A program made the position numbers and the translations under genes. Below the pieces are notes generated by a model. The model saw nothing but the letters and a program-made list of their open reading frames with translations, was not told where the DNA came from and searched no databases. From Longimicrobiales bacterium (lineage in GTDB: Bacteria > Gemmatimonadota > Gemmatimonadetes > Longimicrobiales > Gaopeijiaceae), in NCBI GenBank assembly GCA_965204735.1, contig OZ242008.1, positions 3,200,001-3,264,000 on the forward strand: a DNA stretch of 64,000 nucleotides, given 5' to 3'. Below, in pieces: positions 22,392 to 59,219 of this stretch; positions within the stretch are counted from its first letter, which is position 1, and every line of letters starts with the position of its first letter.

Positions 22392-23092
22392 GCAAGGAGG
22401 CGGAAGTCAAGGCCGCGCACGAAGGTCCCGTGGCGGCCCGGCGAGTCGCCGGCGTGGTGCTGGCGGCGGGGCGCTCCACCCGGATGGGTCGGCCGAAGGC
22501 GCTTCTGGACGCCAACGGAACCACTTTCGTAAACCGCTTGGCCGCCACCCTGGCCGACGGAGGATGCGAACCGGTGATGGTAGTGGTGTCCTGCCCGGAC
22601 GGAGCCGTGGCGCGGGAAGTGGCGATGGGGCCGGGACACGCCGTGGTCAACCCCGGCGGCGCCGGAGGGCAGATCGGATCGCTCCGGGTCGCCTTGAGCC
22701 GCTTGCGGAAGCTGCCCGAGCCGCCCCTGGCGGTGGCGTTCACGCCCGTGGACAACCCCGTGGTGGCTCCGGCGACCGTTCGTCGTCTCGTTCATGCATG
22801 GCTTCGCACGGGCGCGGCCATCACCTTGCCCCGCTTTGGCGACGAACGCGGCCACCCGGTTCTGGTCGCCATGGAGATCGCCGGCGAGTTCTTTGACGCG
22901 GAGTTGCCCGAAGGCGCCAGAGGCGTGGTCCGGCGAGACCCGGACAGAGTGTTGGAGGTTGCCGTCGCCGACCCCGGCGCCGTGGACGACCTGGACACGC
23001 CCGGCAGGTACCGGGAGCGGTTCCTGGAGGGCGAGCCGGCTGGCCGGGGAGGTCGGAGAGGCGCCCCGGACGGCCGGTCGGCGACCCCTTGA
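22388..23092 (+). CDS. Molybdenum cofactor cytidylyltransferase-like nucleotidyltransferase (MocA/NTP_transf_3)
   Basis: LAAGRSTRMGRPKALL, RGHPVL, DDLDTP; adjacent to XdhC. Confidence 0.85.
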   Translation: MSKEAEVKAAHEGPVAARRVAGVVLAAGRSTRMGRPKALLDANGTTFVNRLAATLADGGCEPVMVVVSCPDGAVAREVAMGPGHAVVNPGGAGGQIGSLRVALSRLRKLPEPPLAVAFTPVDNPVVAPATVRRLVHAWLRTGAAITLPRFGDERGHPVLVAMEIAGEFFDAELPEGARGVVRRDPDRVLEVAVADPGAVDDLDTPGRYRERFLEGEPAGRGGRRGAPDGRSATP

Positions 23093-23922
23093 GCGCCGCC
23101 CCGACTCCCGCCGAAGCGGCGGCGGCGGTCTTGGCCGCCCGGAAGATGGGACGACGCATCTGCACTGCCGTGGTGACCCGCTCCGCCAGCGGCCTGACGG
23201 GCAACCGCTGCTGGATCACGGACGGCGCGTTGACCGGCTCGCTGGGGGACCCTGCCCTCGACGCCGCCGTGGCAACCGCCGTTTCGACGGTCTTCCGTGC
23301 CCAGGAGTCGTTCGGGGCGGTTCGTCGCGAGTTCGACTACGAGGACCCGGCGGGCGCCGATTGCGTCGCGACCGTGTACATCGAGCTGCACGCGCCGCCG
23401 GCCAAGCTGGTGGTCGTGGGCGCGGGACACGTGGCAGTGCCCTTGGCCCGGATGGGCGCCATGCTCGGGTTCCGCGTGGAGGTGCTGGACGACCGTCCCG
23501 AGTTCGCCGACCCCGCTCGCTTCCCCGAAGCCGCCGCCGTCCGCGTAATCGACTTTCGCGACCCCTTTGCCGCCACGAGGTTGACGCCGCCCGACCATGT
23601 CGTGCTGGTCACTCGCGGCCACCGCTTCGACTACGAGTGCCTCGCGCGCCTCCTGCGGATGAAGCGTCCGCCGGGCTACGTGGGCATGATCGGCAGCCGC
23701 CGGCGAGTTCGCGCCACGCACGAACAGCTGGCGCAGGAAGAGTTCACTCTCGAAGAAATGAAGCGCGTGCGGGCTCCCGTCGGCCTCGACCTGGGCGGCC
23801 AGACCCCCGCCGAAATCGCCGTGTCCGTCGCTGCGGAGATCGTCATGCACCGCTCCGGCGGCACCGGCGCTCCGCTCTTCCGGAAGGAGCGGGTTGCGGA
23901 GCGGTTCTTCACGCGACGCTAG
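23089..23922 (+). CDS. XdhC family Moco-insertion chaperone (Rossmann domain)
   Basis: VVGAGHVA, LDDRPEFA, TRGHRFD, YVGMIGSRRR, PVGLDLGGQTPAEIAVS. Confidence 0.9.
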   Translation: MSAAPTPAEAAAAVLAARKMGRRICTAVVTRSASGLTGNRCWITDGALTGSLGDPALDAAVATAVSTVFRAQESFGAVRREFDYEDPAGADCVATVYIELHAPPAKLVVVGAGHVAVPLARMGAMLGFRVEVLDDRPEFADPARFPEAAAVRVIDFRDPFAATRLTPPDHVVLVTRGHRFDYECLARLLRMKRPPGYVGMIGSRRRVRATHEQLAQEEFTLEEMKRVRAPVGLDLGGQTPAEIAVSVAAEIVMHRSGGTGAPLFRKERVAERFFTRR

Positions 23923-23983
23923 CGAACTTCGAGCCCGCCTTCTTCATGGGGACGCGCGGGGACCAGCTCCTCGGCGGCCGCGA

Positions 23984-25030
23984 CTAGGATGCCGCCATCT
24001 TGCGGGCCACGTCGGCGACCATGTCGCGCAGGTCCTGGGGCTCCAGCACCTCGGCGTCGGCTCCGAAACGGAGGACGTGAGCGGCCAGCCACCAGGGGTC
24101 GGCAACGCTGTGTCGGACCGTCACGCTGCCGTCGTCGTGGCTTTCCAAGGACACGCTTCGGTACGCCGCTCGCTCCTCGATCCAACGGACGACCGCGGGC
24201 GAGTAGCGCACCACGGCCTCTCGACTGCCCGGATCGAGGATCCAGCCCTCGGGGGTGCGCGTCAGGTACGCGTCGGCGTCGAACTCCTCGGGCACCGCGA
24301 AGGTCCCGTCGCAGTGATCGAGCGACAGAATCCTGTCCAGTCGGAAGACCCGCTCGGCGCGAACCGTCGTGCACTTGGCGACCACATACCAAGTCGTCTC
24401 CGAGTTCACGACCAAGTAGGGGTGAACGACCCGCCGGGACGGGGCCTCGGCCCCGGGCTTCAGGTAGCGGATGGCGCAGGGCCGACGTTCGTAGACGGCG
24501 GTCGCGAGGGTTTCGCGGATGCCCCACAGGTCGGGAGTTCGGCTGGGCAGCGCCAAGTTGGGGGTCGCGTCCGAATCCGAATCTGCGCTCTGGCTCAAGC
24601 AGCGTTCCGCGCGGCGGAGGAATGCGTCCCATGCCGTGTGGTCGCCGGCGGGCGGACCGGAGTGGTTGCCGGCGGCGGCAGTCGACGGCCCCTCGTCGTC
24701 CGCGTCGGTCATCACGCCGCGCAGGGCCAGGGCCAAGCAGAACATCTCGCGACCCGTAAGCCGGAAGGGGCGCTCCATGAAGCTGGTGTGCTCGACCTCG
24801 ACCCGACCCGACTCCATGAAGATGCGGATGTCGCCCGGCCATCCGCCGGGTCGGTACTCGTCGCGAGTGGTCAGCTCCCGCAGATCCTCCAGAATCTGCT
24901 CTTCCGTCGTATCCAGGTCCCTGGCGAGGGCGGCGACGTCGGTCCCGCCGGGCCGGCTGGCGACTGCAACGACATAGGCCAGCCGTTCGAAGCGGCTCCG
25001 GGCCGTGCTTGCGCCCGACCTACCGATCAT
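23984..25030 (-). CDS. HTH-WYL-WCX transcriptional regulator, PafC-like
   Basis: N-terminal HTH (LARDLDTTEEQILEDL), RPFRLT, RRVVHPY...WYVVA...RVFRLDRI, C-terminal WLAAHVLRFGADAEVLEP. Confidence 0.9.
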   Translation of the reverse strand: MIGRSGASTARSRFERLAYVVAVASRPGGTDVAALARDLDTTEEQILEDLRELTTRDEYRPGGWPGDIRIFMESGRVEVEHTSFMERPFRLTGREMFCLALALRGVMTDADDEGPSTAAAGNHSGPPAGDHTAWDAFLRRAERCLSQSADSDSDATPNLALPSRTPDLWGIRETLATAVYERRPCAIRYLKPGAEAPSRRVVHPYLVVNSETTWYVVAKCTTVRAERVFRLDRILSLDHCDGTFAVPEEFDADAYLTRTPEGWILDPGSREAVVRYSPAVVRWIEERAAYRSVSLESHDDGSVTVRHSVADPWWLAAHVLRFGADAEVLEPQDLRDMVADVARKMAAS

Positions 25031-26201
25031 GGGAGACGCTCCCGTCGGGGTCGAACGCGCTCCGGTCGTACTCGCCCGCCACCGACCCGGCCATCGCGCG
25101 AAACTCCTCGTGCATCTCCGGCGGGGTCACGATGCGCGCCTCTCCCAAGAGGCTCATGATCCATCGCAGGAACGCGTTCCGGTTGCGCACCCGGAAGCGT
25201 CGGAGCTGCTCGCCGCCGGGACGGAGTTCCAGAAGCTCGCCGAAGCCGTTGCGCTCGGCCCAGGACGAACGCGGAACCCTGAACAAGACGTCCGCTTCCT
25301 CCGGCTCCCTCCGCATGTCGCCGAGCTCCCACGCATTGAGGCCCGAGTAGTCTGCCAAGCGAAAGCTGGCCGGGAGGCTGAAGTCGGGCGTTCCCGGCGA
25401 TCGGGCGCCGGCGACGAGCCGGTTCATGCGCCCCACGCGAAAGATGCGGATGTCCTTCCGGTCGTCGTCGTGGCCGATCAGGTACCACTTGCCGAACTCG
25501 AAGAGGAGCCCGTAGGGACGAACCCGGCGGTCCGTCTCCTCGGGCCGGCTCATGCCCCGATACCGGAACGTCACCTGCTTCCTCCGACGGAGCGCCGCGG
25601 AGAGGCCGGCCAGCAGGTGGGACGTGGCGACGGCTTCGGGGTCCGGCGCGTAGAGCACCGGCGTGCCGGCGGGAACAGCAGGTCCCAGGTCCGTGGCCAG
25701 CTTGCGAAACGCCGAACGGGCGTCGGCGGCCCAAGGGAAGGCGGGGAGGGTGGAAATCTCCTGCAGTCCTCGCAGGGCCGCGTCCGCCTCGTGCCTGGCG
25801 AAGGCGAAGTGCAGACCCAGGCGGGCGCGGCCGGCGGTCCCGGAGGGCGAAGCGTCCGGCTCCGCCGGCCGGTCGGCTTGCAGGAGTTGCAGGACGGGCA
25901 GCCGATAGCCCGGCGCCAAGCGGTAGGCGACCACCTCTTCGGCGCCGAAGTGCTTTCTCTGCACCACCGATTCGATCGGCACCCCCAGCGACCGAAGCTC
26001 GTCCTTGTCGCGCTCGAAGGTGCGACGCACGGTCGCCTTCTGCTGCGCGCTCCCGTCGAGCCCGTGGGAGTAGGCGGGGACCTGGCTCCAGATCTCGGCC
26101 CTCTCCAGCGGGAACTGACGCTTTGCCAGACAAGCCACCAAGTCGATCCAGCGCTGGAGCTTGGTGGGCTGTCGCGTGCCCGGGTCGGATCGATCGGTCA
26201 T
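25020..26201 (-). CDS. HTH-WYL-WCX transcriptional regulator, PafB-like
   Basis: RRTFERDKDELRSLGVPI (PafB-type HTH), RRVRPYGLLF..GKWYLIGHD...RIFRVGRM, WIMSLLGEARIVTP. Confidence 0.92.
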   Translation of the reverse strand: MTDRSDPGTRQPTKLQRWIDLVACLAKRQFPLERAEIWSQVPAYSHGLDGSAQQKATVRRTFERDKDELRSLGVPIESVVQRKHFGAEEVVAYRLAPGYRLPVLQLLQADRPAEPDASPSGTAGRARLGLHFAFARHEADAALRGLQEISTLPAFPWAADARSAFRKLATDLGPAVPAGTPVLYAPDPEAVATSHLLAGLSAALRRRKQVTFRYRGMSRPEETDRRVRPYGLLFEFGKWYLIGHDDDRKDIRIFRVGRMNRLVAGARSPGTPDFSLPASFRLADYSGLNAWELGDMRREPEEADVLFRVPRSSWAERNGFGELLELRPGGEQLRRFRVRNRNAFLRWIMSLLGEARIVTPPEMHEEFRAMAGSVAGEYDRSAFDPDGSVSHDR

Positions 26202-26245
26202 CTGGCGGCTCCGTTCCTGCAAGTGAATGTGCGCAAATCCGCTTC

Positions 26246-26267
26246 AGTCTAGCAAAGGGGAGCGACA
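26246..26267 (-). promoter_or_regulatory. PafBC-type (RecA-NDp-like) promoter facing the WYL pair
   Basis: Minus strand TGTCGC-TCCCCTTTGC-TAGACT = TGTCGN-N10-TAnnnT. Confidence 0.65.
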
Positions 26268-26312
26268 CTCCCGTCCAGGCGAGTCCGGCGAGCCGCGGCA
26301 GGGCCCGGAGGC

Positions 26313-26334
26313 TGTCATACCCCCCGCCTACTTT
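26313..26334 (+). promoter_or_regulatory. PafBC-type (RecA-NDp-like) promoter facing the two lipoprotein genes
   Basis: TGTCAT-ACCCCCCGCC-TACTTT = TGTCRN-N10-TAnnnT. Confidence 0.65.
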
Positions 26335-26460
26335 GCCGCGTCTTTCCCGAACCTGGGCCAGCCGGCTTGTCGATTGCGCGACGCCAGCCGCCAACCGAAC
26401 CGGCGACGCGAACGGCAGGGCCGGGACCAACCAGCCCAACACCAGAGGAGAACGCAGCGA

Positions 26461-26811
26461 GTGAACACGAACAAGAAGACGGGCCTCTTCCTGGCGGTCG
26501 TCGCCCTGGCCTCCTGCTCGGATCCGGTGGGGACGCCCGAAGACGTCGGCGCCGTCACAGGCCTCGTCGTGATCGGCAGCGTGCCTGCGCCGAACGTGCA
26601 GGTTGCGCTGGACGGGAGCACGGTCCGATCCACCGACGCCTCCGGCAAGTACCGGTTCGTGGACCTGACCGTGGGCGACAGCTACGGAGTGGCGGTCGTG
26701 GCCAGCACGCTTCCGGAGCATGTGGAGATGCATGTGGCGGAGCATCAGGTCACGGTGCCCGAAAGCCGCGTGGCGTACGCAAACTTCTTCGGGAGCCGCA
26801 AGCAGCCGTAG
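26461..26811 (+). CDS. Small lipoprotein with carboxypeptidase-regulatory/Ig-like beta-sandwich
   Basis: GAGGAG RBS, GTG start, lipobox LASC, V.VAL...TDASGKYRF..L..G.Y pattern. Confidence 0.75.
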   Translation: MNTNKKTGLFLAVVALASCSDPVGTPEDVGAVTGLVVIGSVPAPNVQVALDGSTVRSTDASGKYRFVDLTVGDSYGVAVVASTLPEHVEMHVAEHQVTVPESRVAYANFFGSRKQP

Positions 26812-26902
26812 TAGTCCCGGTCGCTCTCGCCGGGGAACCGGCGGGACGCGGAGCGCCCGCCGACGGGCGACCAACCAAGAACAACAACAGAAAGAGAAGA
26901 AG

Positions 26903-27319
26903 ATGACGAAGACGAAGAGAGCATGGAGCGCGGCGATGATCTGCGTCGCTCTGATCCAGGTGGGCGGGTGTTCCTACATCGCGCACTCGGAGCCGGCCCG
27001 CGGAGGCCCCGAGGACGCTTTCTGCACGCCGTCCAGGGTGCCCCACACCGTGGACGCCGCCGCAGCGCTTCTCGCTCCACTGGCCGGCATGGCGGTCGGG
27101 TTTCTTGCGCCGAGCGCCGAGGAGAACTCGCGGTGGGCTCCGCTCGCGGGCTTTGTCGCCGGCGGCGTGCTGTCGGGCGCCGTCGTCGCGCCGTCGTACA
27201 GGCACGGCACGGAAGAAGCGGCAGCGTGCCGGGCGGCGCGTCTGGCGCGCGACAGGGCCTGGACCGAGTACTGGGCGGCGCAAGACACGGCAGCCAAGCC
27301 GTCCGAGGGACAGCGCTAG
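26903..27319 (+). CDS. Small lipoprotein with two hydrophobic helices bracketed by a Cys pair
   Basis: Lipobox VGGC; FCTPS...[TM-TM, Gly-rich]...AACR. Confidence 0.7.
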   Translation: MTKTKRAWSAAMICVALIQVGGCSYIAHSEPARGGPEDAFCTPSRVPHTVDAAAALLAPLAGMAVGFLAPSAEENSRWAPLAGFVAGGVLSGAVVAPSYRHGTEEAAACRAARLARDRAWTEYWAAQDTAAKPSEGQR

Positions 27320-27471
27320 GCCGAGGCCGGGATTGCCCCTCGGGGCAGGCGTCGTCGCTGCGGCAGTGCTAGCTTGGTGGACACGTGGGGGCTGCCATGC
27401 GGGCCGAAGCCCCGAGGCTGGGCTTGGCCGCAGGCTGGTCCTCGATCTGCTTGACTCGATGGAGCGGCGCC

Positions 27472-27828
27472 ATGGACGAAAGCGAGCTGCTTGATGTTCT
27501 TGCCGACGTGCGCGAGCCCGCCGTGCTGGCGACGGTGGTGGCGACGAAGGGGTCCACGCCCCGGAAGGCCGGCGCCAAGATGCTGTTGGGCAAGGACGGC
27601 TCGATCGCGGGCACCATCGGAGGCGGGTGCGGCGAGGGCGAGGTGATTGCCGCCGCCCAGGACCTCTTCGACGGCGGGCCGCCCACGACCGTCCGGATCG
27701 ACCTGACCGACGACCTGACTTCGTGGAGCCCGGCCGTGTGCGGCGGGATCATGGACGTCTTCATCGAGCGGGCCGACGCGGGCGAAGCCGCTTCCACTCG
27801 GGAAGGGTCGCCGCGAAGACGAGGGTGA
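27472..27828 (+). CDS. Stand-alone XdhC/CoxI N-terminal domain protein
   Basis: LATVVATKGSTPRKAGAKM, GTIGGGCGEGEV, CGGIMDVFIE. Confidence 0.88.
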   Translation: MDESELLDVLADVREPAVLATVVATKGSTPRKAGAKMLLGKDGSIAGTIGGGCGEGEVIAAAQDLFDGGPPTTVRIDLTDDLTSWSPAVCGGIMDVFIERADAGEAASTREGSPRRRG

Positions 27829-28216
27829 TCGCGACGGCCGACGCCACGCAGTACCGGCACCATGCGCGGATCACGAACGCCTCGAGATAGGTGAGCCAGG
27901 CGCTGAAGAGCACGCCGGCGAGGGCGCCGCCAAAGAGAAGGAAGGCGACCGCCCGCGAGGGCGCGAAGCGCCGTTGCAAGCCCAGCGTCGCCAGCGCGAA
28001 GAGGGCCAGGTATCCGGCCACTCCGATCCCGGAGACGGGAACCGGCCCCACCCACGCCCAGCTGGAGGACTGCACGGTCCCGCAATCGCCCGAGCCGCAC
28101 TGGATCGATCCGGCCCAGCCCAGGTTGTGGGCTGCCAGGTAGAACGCGAGGAAGGCGCCGCCCAGAGACACGACGGCCACGACCATGCGGTTTCGGGGCA
28201 GGGCGGCGTCCGCCAC
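27761..28216 (-). CDS. Vitamin K epoxide reductase (VKOR) family protein
   Basis: CGSGDCGTVQSSSWA, C-terminal WCRYC (CxxC), TM helices; follows DsbA. Confidence 0.9.
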   Translation of the reverse strand: MADAALPRNRMVVAVVSLGGAFLAFYLAAHNLGWAGSIQCGSGDCGTVQSSSWAWVGPVPVSGIGVAGYLALFALATLGLQRRFAPSRAVAFLLFGGALAGVLFSAWLTYLEAFVIRAWCRYCVASAVAITLVFAATLPEWKRLRPRRPAR

Positions 28217-28219
28217 AGG

Positions 28220-28927
28220 CTAGTTGCCCGAAGCAGCTTCCACGGCGCGCTGGACGTCGAGGAACTGGAACCCGCCCAGCTGCTGGGTCCCGCTCTCGTC
28301 GTGATGGACGAAGATCGTCGGCGTCCCGCCTACACGGAGACGCTCGCCCAGGCGCCGATTGGCCGTCACCACGTCGGCGTGGCGGCCGCTCTCCAGGCAT
28401 CCGCGGAAGGCGGCCGCGTCCAGTCCCAGGTCGTCCGCCAGACTCCTGAAGTGGCCGGCGGCGTCGCGCATTGTCGACCACCTCGCCTGGCTGCGGAAGA
28501 TGGCGTCGTGGTAGTCGTGGTAGCGGTCCTGGTCGCCGGCGCAGCGGGCCGCGCGGGCGGCGAGGAAGGCGTGGGGATGCTGGTCCAGGGGGAAGTCGTG
28601 GAACACCAGCTTCGCTTCGCCTGCGGCGATGTACGCCAGATCCAGCTGCGGCTTGACCTCGAGGGCGAAGGATCGGCAGGCGGGGCACTGGTAGTCGCCG
28701 AACTCCATGATCGTGACGGGGGCGTCCGGGTCCCCCCAGACGACTCCTTGAGCCAGGTCGATCAGCTGCTGGTCGCCGATCTCGCCCAGCTCGACGGGCG
28801 CGCTGGCCGTCTCTCCGCCGTCGCGCAGGGCGAACGCCACGACCACCACGCCGAGCACCGCCACCACTCCGATCGCCAAGTAGAACTTGGTCAGGTCGGA
28901 ACTTCCCGTTGCTCTCTTTCTTGCCAC
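28220..28927 (-). CDS. DsbA-family thioredoxin-fold oxidoreductase, membrane anchored
   Basis: GDPDAPVTIMEFGDYQCPAC, HDFPL, GGTPT. Confidence 0.9.
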   Translation of the reverse strand: MARKRATGSSDLTKFYLAIGVVAVLGVVVVAFALRDGGETASAPVELGEIGDQQLIDLAQGVVWGDPDAPVTIMEFGDYQCPACRSFALEVKPQLDLAYIAAGEAKLVFHDFPLDQHPHAFLAARAARCAGDQDRYHDYHDAIFRSQARWSTMRDAAGHFRSLADDLGLDAAAFRGCLESGRHADVVTANRRLGERLRVGGTPTIFVHHDESGTQQLGGFQFLDVQRAVEAASGN

Positions 28928-58556: not shown

Positions 58557-58560
<4 letters not shown>

Positions 58561-59219
58561 GGCTGACGGAGGATCGGCTGGAGGCTTGGGGCCGGCGGAT
58601 CGGAGGGGAGCTTCGGGCGGGCGTGCAGTCGGGTCTCGGGGGGGAGTTCCGGGAGGGCGCCCGCTGGGGCGTCGGGGCCGGTGGACCGGGCGGGCGGGTC
58701 GGCAGAGCTTCTGGGGACCTCCAGGAGGGCGCCCGCTGGGGCGTCGGGGCCGGTGGACCGGGCGGGCGGGTCGGCAGAGCTTCTGGGGAGTTCCGGGAGG
58801 GCGCCCGCTGGGGCGTCGGGACCGCCGGGGGGGCGTTCGTCGGGCTGCGGGGGCCGCTGGGGGCGGGGAAGTCGGTCCTGGCCCGGGCGGTGGCTCGGGG
58901 GGCGGGGGTGGAGGGGCCGATGCCGTCGCCGACCTTCAACATCCTCTTCCGGTATCCGTTGCCGGGCGGGGGCTCGGTGGTCCACGCGGACCTGTATCGG
59001 GTCCGGTCGGTGGAGGAGCTGGCGCTGCTGGGGTGGGACGACCTGCTGGCGGACCGGTCGATTGCCCTCGTGGAGTGGCCGGAGCGGGCGGCGGGCGAGC
59101 TTCCGGACGACCGCTGGGAGATCGAGCTGGCGATGTCCAGCGAGGCCGGCGTGCGCGCGGCCGTGGCTCGGCGCCACGGGACCCCCCTCGATCTGCCGGC
59201 GTGCTTGGCGGCGGAGTGA
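58557..59219 (+). CDS. tsaE: tRNA threonylcarbamoyladenosine biosynthesis ATPase TsaE with repeat insertion
   Basis: [23 protein letters not shown]; adjacent to tsaB. Confidence 0.9.
58642..58820 (+). repeat. 72-bp tandem repeat (about 2.5 units) in frame within tsaE
   Basis: gagggcgcccgctggggcgtcggg at 58653, 58725 and 58797. Confidence 0.95.

Follow-up and report, generated by a model that had tools for sequence, protein, structure and literature searches.

The locus studied here is a pair of pafB-like and pafC-like genes, divergent from two small lipoprotein genes (L1 and L2), in a Longimicrobiales bacterium of the phylum Gemmatimonadota (assembly GCA_965204735.1). It was read in a window of 64,000 nucleotides, C1:3200001-3264000 of the genome (G000), which is a single contig (OZ242008.1) of 4.14 Mb with 69% GC and 98% completeness. 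Our analysis suggested that the pair is probably an activator of the PafBC type whose regulon centres on defence; a heterodimer activated by single-stranded DNA (ssDNA) would adapt the sigma factor to -26/-10 promoters and induce itself, defence nucleases, end-processing enzymes and lipoproteins. Activation, the ssDNA signal and the sigma adaptation are what we infer for the Gemmatimonadota pair. The whole looks like a genome-wide defence switch with an envelope arm, not like the self-contained sensor-effector cassette proposed in the initial annotation of this DNA.

The two genes overlap by 11 bases and encode the sole two WYL proteins of the genome. Structure matches and residues agreed with their annotation as a PafB/PafC-type pair outside Actinobacteria. 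The best solved matches of the PafB-like protein were 6sj9_A (E 5e-22) and the PafB chain 9fnd_X (E 2e-17), its match to CapW was far weaker (E 0.02), and its closest titled relatives, at 69% identity, came from Longimicrobiales, Gemmatimonadota. The best solved match of the PafC-like protein was M. smegmatis PafC (7p5x_AX, E 1.9e-14). The DNA-reading residues of PafB and the promoter consensus tGTCgg(N10)tA(N3)T are described in PMC8635444, and equivalents of all GTC-reading residues of the helix-turn-helix (HTH) domain (K5, R8, R46, R50, K52, R56 and Y76) were present here and kept in 40, 40, 40, 42, 42, 36 and 42 of 42 homologues; positions E42/A43 are A/T here and vary among homologues. 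Likewise, the WYL residues that bind ssDNA in PafB and PafC (PMC11804915) all had equivalents: R181, Y196, R204, R208, R211 and R214 of PafB, kept in 40, 42, 30, 35, 40 and 41 of 42 homologues, and the PafC arginines R201 and R204, each kept in 43 of 43. The PafB-like protein has a basic helix 3 (+2) and the PafC-like protein an acidic one (-4), and PafB precedes PafC wherever both fall within a homologous locus. Judged from these matches and residues, the two proteins are true counterparts of PafB and PafC.

The complex model of PafB with PafC scored 0.64, while the best of 3 controls scored 0.00; contact agreement between runs was at least 75% and partner pLDDT (predicted local distance difference test) at least 70. 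The mark applied is passed by 51 of the 78 solved pairs and by 2 of the 108 mismatched ones, and the pass of this model may reflect memory of the solved PafBC structures. The annotated absence of pafA, pup and proteasome genes nearby held at genome scale for the Pup ligase, which was not found in G000, with the C. glutamicum control detected. One proteasome-family match, a 191-amino-acid frame far from the locus, may be HslV. The search for PafB in viral contigs gave no confirmed match.

PafBC-type motifs had been annotated in both directions between pafB and L1, and both were read there (Table 1) and fit the published consensus. The motif takes the form YGTCRC-ACCCC-n5-TAnnnT. The whole 4.14 Mb genome was scanned on either strand with a matrix trained only on the pafB upstream regions of relatives. 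The three top sites were all intergenic, 114-148 bases before a co-oriented start: those of a second lipoprotein operon (C1:2182919), of L1 and of a 928-amino-acid gene (C1:2820435), whose orthologue in the same-genus genome G002 is a type IIG restriction-methylase. The restriction-gene site is common to G000 and G002 within a near-identical island and is therefore not independent. The second lipoprotein operon and its site also occur in G002, at another chromosomal place, and in G000 the upstream element is found two more times, as partial copies, ahead of this site. No sigma-70 -35/-10 match was found in 23800-27900 (0 found, 0.2 expected), which is uninformative alone.

The motif was associated with pafBC across relatives. 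PafB matches occurred in 27 of 60 relatives (26 of 59 without G056), and the PafC HTH domain was found in 56 of 201 genomes of the phylum. With the pafB-upstream matrix, a site preceded pafB in 16 of 22 relatives, compared with 2% in shuffles. A fixed pattern gave 45 matches in 27 PafB-positive genomes (reversed control 3) versus 14 in 33 PafB-negative ones (control 15; G037 adds 0 and 0 here), and 37 of the 45 remained after removing the 8 sites used to draw the pattern. In a held-out set of 80 genomes, which left out seven positive and seven negative genomes, there were 39 matches in 40 PafC-positive genomes (control 27) versus 20 in 40 negative ones (control 40). The core TGTCACACCC, chosen post hoc, gave 20 versus 1 in this set by hand count, and the lone negative genome has WYL genes at contig ends. 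A looser pattern in the three same-genus genomes (G001-G003) added 25 loci, 20 of them in-gene.

Genes under the motif, named by Pfam and PADLOC, included CRISPR, restriction, AddAB-like, vWA and ARPP-1 genes in relatives. Our hand tally of the 45 sites assigned 7 each to the own operon, envelope or secreted proteins, defence, and DNA processing or repair, 4 to vWA genes, 3 to ARPP-1, 1 to a 45-amino-acid basic peptide, 3 to intergenic places with unknown targets, 5 to the inside of genes and 1 to a contig end. The held-out genomes repeated these target classes and added Cas1/Cas2, an HmaA helicase and a DruE-like helicase. The link was also detected gene-first: type I-G cas3 was found in 12 of 78 genomes, and with the query genome and one contig-end-cut gene excluded and G000 added, a site by consensus or matrix lay within 68-330 bases of cas3 in 6 of 6 PafBC-positive and 0 of 5 negative genomes (p 0.002). 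In G000 the cas3 gene (C1:2079920) is unbroken, with a minimal-consensus site 77 bases before its start. The surrounding type I-G CRISPR-Cas locus (C1:2079920-2101900) has two cas3-like stretches and two Cas7-like genes, with a coding score below the rest of the genome.

Lipoproteins were also enriched under the motif, and the annotated link of the pair to small envelope lipoproteins recurred in this way beyond the locus. Among 70 first genes that lie behind strong intergenic sites outside the own operon, 12 had a lipobox; the corresponding counts are 91 of 1498 operon-leading genes in G000 (6%) and 29 of 486 for the retrieved loci (p 0.001). Divergent lipoproteins with a motif site, distantly similar to L1 (profile probability 43%), stand in loci L137 and L138, and divergent PEGA and other lipoproteins with a site were seen in G024. 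It could be argued that these genes are passengers without a role behind a spare motif-bearing promoter, and that the pair regulates itself and defence genes. Consistent with this, the motif-led lipoproteins belong to several unrelated families (carboxypeptidase-regulatory-like, PEGA, unnamed), L2 resembles the L2-like protein of the second operon weakly (profile probability 10%), and the slot between the xdhC genes takes other cargo, for example a PD-T4-4-like ATPase gene in G003. However, the enrichment over background speaks against passengers, as do the two best sites of G000, each of which stands before a lipoprotein operon of its own, the domain shared by L1 and the second-operon peptidase (probability 92%), and the motif kept by the second operon at its other place in G002. 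We regard the passenger explanation as unlikely, and keep the lipoproteins as an arm of the proposed defence regulon.

Several results weigh against a defence-centred PafBC regulon. Column-shuffled matrices yielded 0-2 sites scoring at least 20 versus 3 real ones, so that the position and target of the sites, not their number, carry weight. The cas3 site of G000 ranks 1762nd by matrix, its ARPP-1 gene has no site, and with a matrix score above 10 alone the cas3 count is 4 of 6 versus 0 of 5 (p 0.06). AddB-like genes with a readable start carried a site in 4 of 9 versus 1 of 9 cases (p 0.29), and recA did so in 4 of 29 PafBC-positive genomes, one of them found motif-first, and not in G000. The lipoprotein enrichment, which uses our own lipobox rule, drops to 8 of 62 (p 0.034) without the 8 rows of this genus. 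The genomes are kin and not independent, so all p values overstate. In the protein, the sigma-touching Asp62 of mycobacterial PafC corresponds to Arg69 here and to Gln in 29 of 43 homologues, the register of this Asp/Glu62 contact to sigma domain 4 being hand-set from the structure-match alignment. Good sites also precede Cas3, AddAB-like and ARPP-1 genes in G019, G027 and G038, drafts of 94-99% completeness in which no WYL gene was found. Together with G006, which likewise has sites and no detectable WYL gene, these genomes would suit a motif that another factor reads or that simply marks a class of strong promoters, linked to pafBC by shared ancestry or islands. This seems very unlikely, since PafB-negative genomes show no excess over the reversed-pattern control (14 versus 15), G073, the apparent exception to the motif-pafBC link, has WYL genes at contig ends, and the GTC-reading arginines are kept.

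A mycobacterial-style global regulator of the response to DNA damage, which counts the lipoproteins among its minor targets, would share the residues and the motif geometry observed here, and recA, recJ, exonuclease and AddAB-like genes have sites in some relatives. We consider it highly improbable. Each genome has a handful of strong sites versus about 150 genes in mycobacteria (PMC11804915), recA sites are as scarce as stated, and the PafC domain occurs in just 56 of 201 phylum genomes. Two LexA genes were found in G000, and a separate repeat occurs there upstream of both recA and one of the lexA genes.

The cassette explanation, in which the pair exists to induce L1 and L2 and these kill, arrest or shield the cell, was weighed against the neighbourhoods of homologous pairs. 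Extended readings of 20 pafBC loci showed different neighbours in different genera. A divergent L1 stands beside pafB in the same-genus genomes only (G001-G003, 3 of 3, the G002 copy being frameshifted in the assembly), where the back-to-back motifs and L1 are kept even with the block at another chromosomal site. This retention, the lipoproteins of L137 and L138, and the fact that the block is an insertion favour a cassette. On the other side, L2 is missing at the pafBC site in all three same-genus genomes, L1 or L2 was found in 0 of 17 other order-level loci outside the genus, equal or stronger sites lie elsewhere in G000, the motif marks distant genes including defence genes, and PADLOC has no match for L1 or L2. 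The cassette is thus very unlikely, and a trans-acting defence switch remains our preferred reading.

Two other neighbourhoods were noted. In G060, pafC is followed, in the same orientation, by genes for two lipoproteins with a stand-alone TonB-receptor plug domain (L041:5422-6423). At L146:3925-4833, an ADP-ribosylglycohydrolase (ARG) gene under the motif stands directly before pafB, echoing ARG-WYL systems.

L1 was annotated as an Ig-like lipoprotein; it is a lipoprotein, and its domain is instead carboxypeptidase-regulatory-like (Pfam E 5e-4, below the cut-off; Atlas 0.94), a beta-sandwich close to Ig-like. The search with L1 gave 196 matches, among them repeats of large surface proteins, and its single-sequence fold had a pLDDT of 40. 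Domains of this type also head many TonB-dependent receptors. For L2, the annotated Cys-bracketed two-helix membrane lipoprotein was borne out in its bracket and its two stretches of moderate hydrophobicity between Cys41 and Cys109 (19-residue hydropathy 1.8 and 1.6); its helices at 48-68 and 79-131 come from a low-confidence model (pLDDT 56), so that membrane placement is a prediction. The gap between L1 and L2 is 91 bases with no terminator-like site found in it, and L2 is probably read from the L1 promoter. L2 has 3 full-length homologues at 69-73%, and its Atlas matches (0.94-0.96; weak, recognition 2025) are unnamed lipoprotein clusters with few recorded members, most of them from Myxococcota. 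Among Joint Genome Institute metagenome contigs, 116 pattern matches to the L2 family gave none confirmed; the fold search with the low-quality L2 model gave no match at E 0.001, and 0 PADLOC families matched L1 or L2 at E 1e-5.

A grouping of L2 and the L2-like proteins as one family was tried and not established (profile probability 9-10%; 4% for a hairpin protein of G003). A joint profile recovered only relatives of its own members, and the kinship of L2 with the L2-like protein rests on layout and a short motif only.

As for function, our guess, a doubtful one, is that L1 and L2 remodel the surface and lower phage entry, which we favour over cell killing; L1 could jam receptor-mediated entry. 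It is possible, though not probable, that such small lipid-anchored beta-sandwich and helical-hairpin proteins form an undescribed class of inducible phage-exclusion factors, induced on ssDNA together with CRISPR and restriction by PafBC as a master inducer of immunity.

In the proposed mechanism, ssDNA from phage infection, nuclease action or DNA damage would bind across both WYL domains. PafB would read the GTC of the -26 element and PafC would bridge to the housekeeping sigma factor, by which promoters without a -35 box would be switched on. The regulon would be small, mobile and trans-acting, comprising the own operon, CRISPR-Cas, restriction-modification, McrBC, DNA-end-processing nucleases, vWA, ARPP-1 and small lipoproteins. 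Predicted targets in G000 are pafBC, L1-L2 as the envelope arm of the response, the second lipoprotein operon, the type IIG restriction-modification gene and, with a weaker site, cas3. The nucleases of the regulon might generate more ssDNA and close a feed-forward loop.

Among known systems, actinobacterial PafBC (M. smegmatis, A. aurescens; PDB 7P5X, 9FND, 6SJ9; PMC8635444, PMC11804915, PMC6789036) shares the adjacent winged HTH-WYL-WCX genes in the order pafB-pafC, the opposite charges of helix 3, the DNA- and ssDNA-binding residues and the GTC-N-TAnnnT promoter with the same 10-base spacer. The Gemmatimonadota pair differs in having no pafA/Pup locus, a Gram-negative host phylum and a patchy distribution. 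It also has the motif before its own operon, whereas mycobacterial pafBC is not induced (PMC7617703), an extra conserved ACCCC in the spacer and no PafC Asp62, and its regulon is small, defence- and envelope-rich, with recA seldom a target. Since the pafA linkage, a recA-centred regulon and one sigma contact are gone, the pair was counted as a PafBC variant. PafBC-class proteins are widespread (PMC6789036, PMC7617703), and in the literature covered, sigma adaptation is demonstrated for actinobacterial PafBC only.

DdaA of Moraxellaceae (PMC12392091) is the closest in logic by this comparison, as a WYL activator acting in trans on CRISPR-Cas, restriction-modification and DNA-processing promoters, and offers an earlier example of such an activator driving dispersed CRISPR and restriction genes. 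DdaA takes the place of SOS and binds, as a homodimer, a palindrome that lies about 50 bases ahead of the start site; it is presumed to act without sigma adaptation (PMC12392091). The word lipoprotein appears nowhere in the main text of that paper. DriD of Caulobacter, an ssDNA-sensing WYL protein wired to the small membrane protein DidA, likewise has a palindrome (PMC12392091) and is a homodimer (PMC7617703). Unlike DdaA/DriD-type homodimers, the system here has two distinct subunits, and its site, which is no palindrome, is fused to the -10 element. SiwR is similar as a WYL ssDNA sensor wired to adjacent genes (PMC10693628). BrxR and CapW are WYL sensors wired to defence operons and differ as repressors (PMC12392091); instead of a single repressor heading a defence operon, a pair flanked by xdhC and lipoprotein genes is present here.

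ARG/ARPP-WYL conflict neighbourhoods place ARPP beside a WYL regulator (PMC9503650), and in relatives ARPP-1 and ADP-ribosylglycohydrolase genes lie under the motif; in PMC9503650 the WYL factors of ARG systems are regarded as repressors with a local role. A WYL pair of M. xanthus homologous to PafB/PafC, MXAN_1359/1360, is mentioned and not studied in PMC12288472. The available passages of PMC9503650 and PMC12288472 contain no PafBC-type promoter or trans regulon. Our literature search, in a collection with few subscription papers, turned up no publication that deals with PafBC in Gemmatimonadota or with lipoproteins as targets, and regulon tables in supplements could bear on novelty; literature on Gemmatimonad and WYL consisted of community surveys among the matches listed.

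With a conserved PafBC pair and an unchanged promoter geometry present in a Gram-negative phylum, the spread of sigma adaptation becomes directly testable. The regulon suggests that such a switch can serve immunity instead of repair, a use to which DdaA is put through a different mechanism. The new elements here are the cas3 test and the lipoprotein arm. The motif also serves as a guilt-by-regulation screen, by which L1, L2, PEGA lipoproteins, the 45-amino-acid peptide, vWA and ARPP-1 proteins, encoded away from defence islands, become candidate defence or stress factors.

The layout of the locus is given in Table 1. Outside the studied block, genes were called with a simple hexamer gene finder trained on G000, which misses low-GC genes. 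In G002, G008 and G012 the two xdhC genes directly adjoin (an empty site in 3 of 3 gene-holding genomes, 5 searched), and they are split here, so that the pafBC-L1-L2 block is an insertion. Among the contigs of 4 runs compared with 22500-28500, two cover it end to end; the block is therefore present in related strains. DNA matching the stretch was listed in sponge and marine metagenomes, among others, with no RNA data set among the holders listed.

Table 1. Features at the pafBC locus (window positions) and the second lipoprotein operon (genome positions, C1).
Feature	Position	Strand	Details
pafC-like gene	23984..25030	-	348 aa; HTH_PafC + WYL + WCX (Pfam)
pafB-like gene	25020..26201	-	393 aa; winged HTH, WYL + WCX (Pfam)
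PafBC-type -26/-10 motif facing pafB, predicted autoregulation	26246..26267	-	TGTCGC-N10-TAGACT; matrix score 16.3, genome rank 8
PafBC-type -26/-10 motif facing L1	26313..26334	+	TGTCAT-N10-TACTTT; score 22.4, genome rank 2
L1 lipoprotein, one carboxypeptidase-regulatory-like beta-sandwich domain	26461..26811	+	116 aa; lipobox cysteine 19
L2 lipoprotein, Cys41/Cys109-bracketed hydrophobic helical hairpin	26903..27319	+	138 aa; lipobox cysteine 23
xdhC Rossmann-domain gene, left flank, outside the system	23089..23922	+	Pfam XdhC_C
xdhC CoxI-domain gene, right flank	27472..27828	+	Pfam XdhC_CoxI
Second motif-led lipoprotein operon	C1:2183035-2185772		L2-like lipoprotein + 760-aa lipoprotein with L1-like repeats, HEIGH zinc-peptidase motif

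Downstream of pafC, the xdhC slot holds the PD-T4-4-like ATPase gene in G003 (L033:4515-6516) and a related fragment in G001 (L031 near 11400), and the slot is a candidate insertion hotspot for defence cargo.

The 45-amino-acid basic, amphipathic-looking peptide is conserved in L101 (G032), L190 (G212) and L193 (G142), under the motif or between ARPP-1 and pafB, with no Pfam match, and is a candidate membrane-active effector.

The repeat before recA and one lexA in G000 (C1:2495315, C1:1441102) reads TTTCG-N7-TTCGG; it was also seen by eye before recA in many relatives (L202-L230), and is a candidate LexA box for this group. The same repeat lies about 50 bases before a multi-copy transposase-like gene. 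In the recA promoters of L212 (G131) and L213 (G188), the candidate box is reversed and abuts a PafBC-type site, where dual control is possible. Elsewhere in the window, at 58557-59219, a 220-amino-acid frame with repeated Gly-rich units lies between uvrB-like and tsaB-like genes (names by eye).

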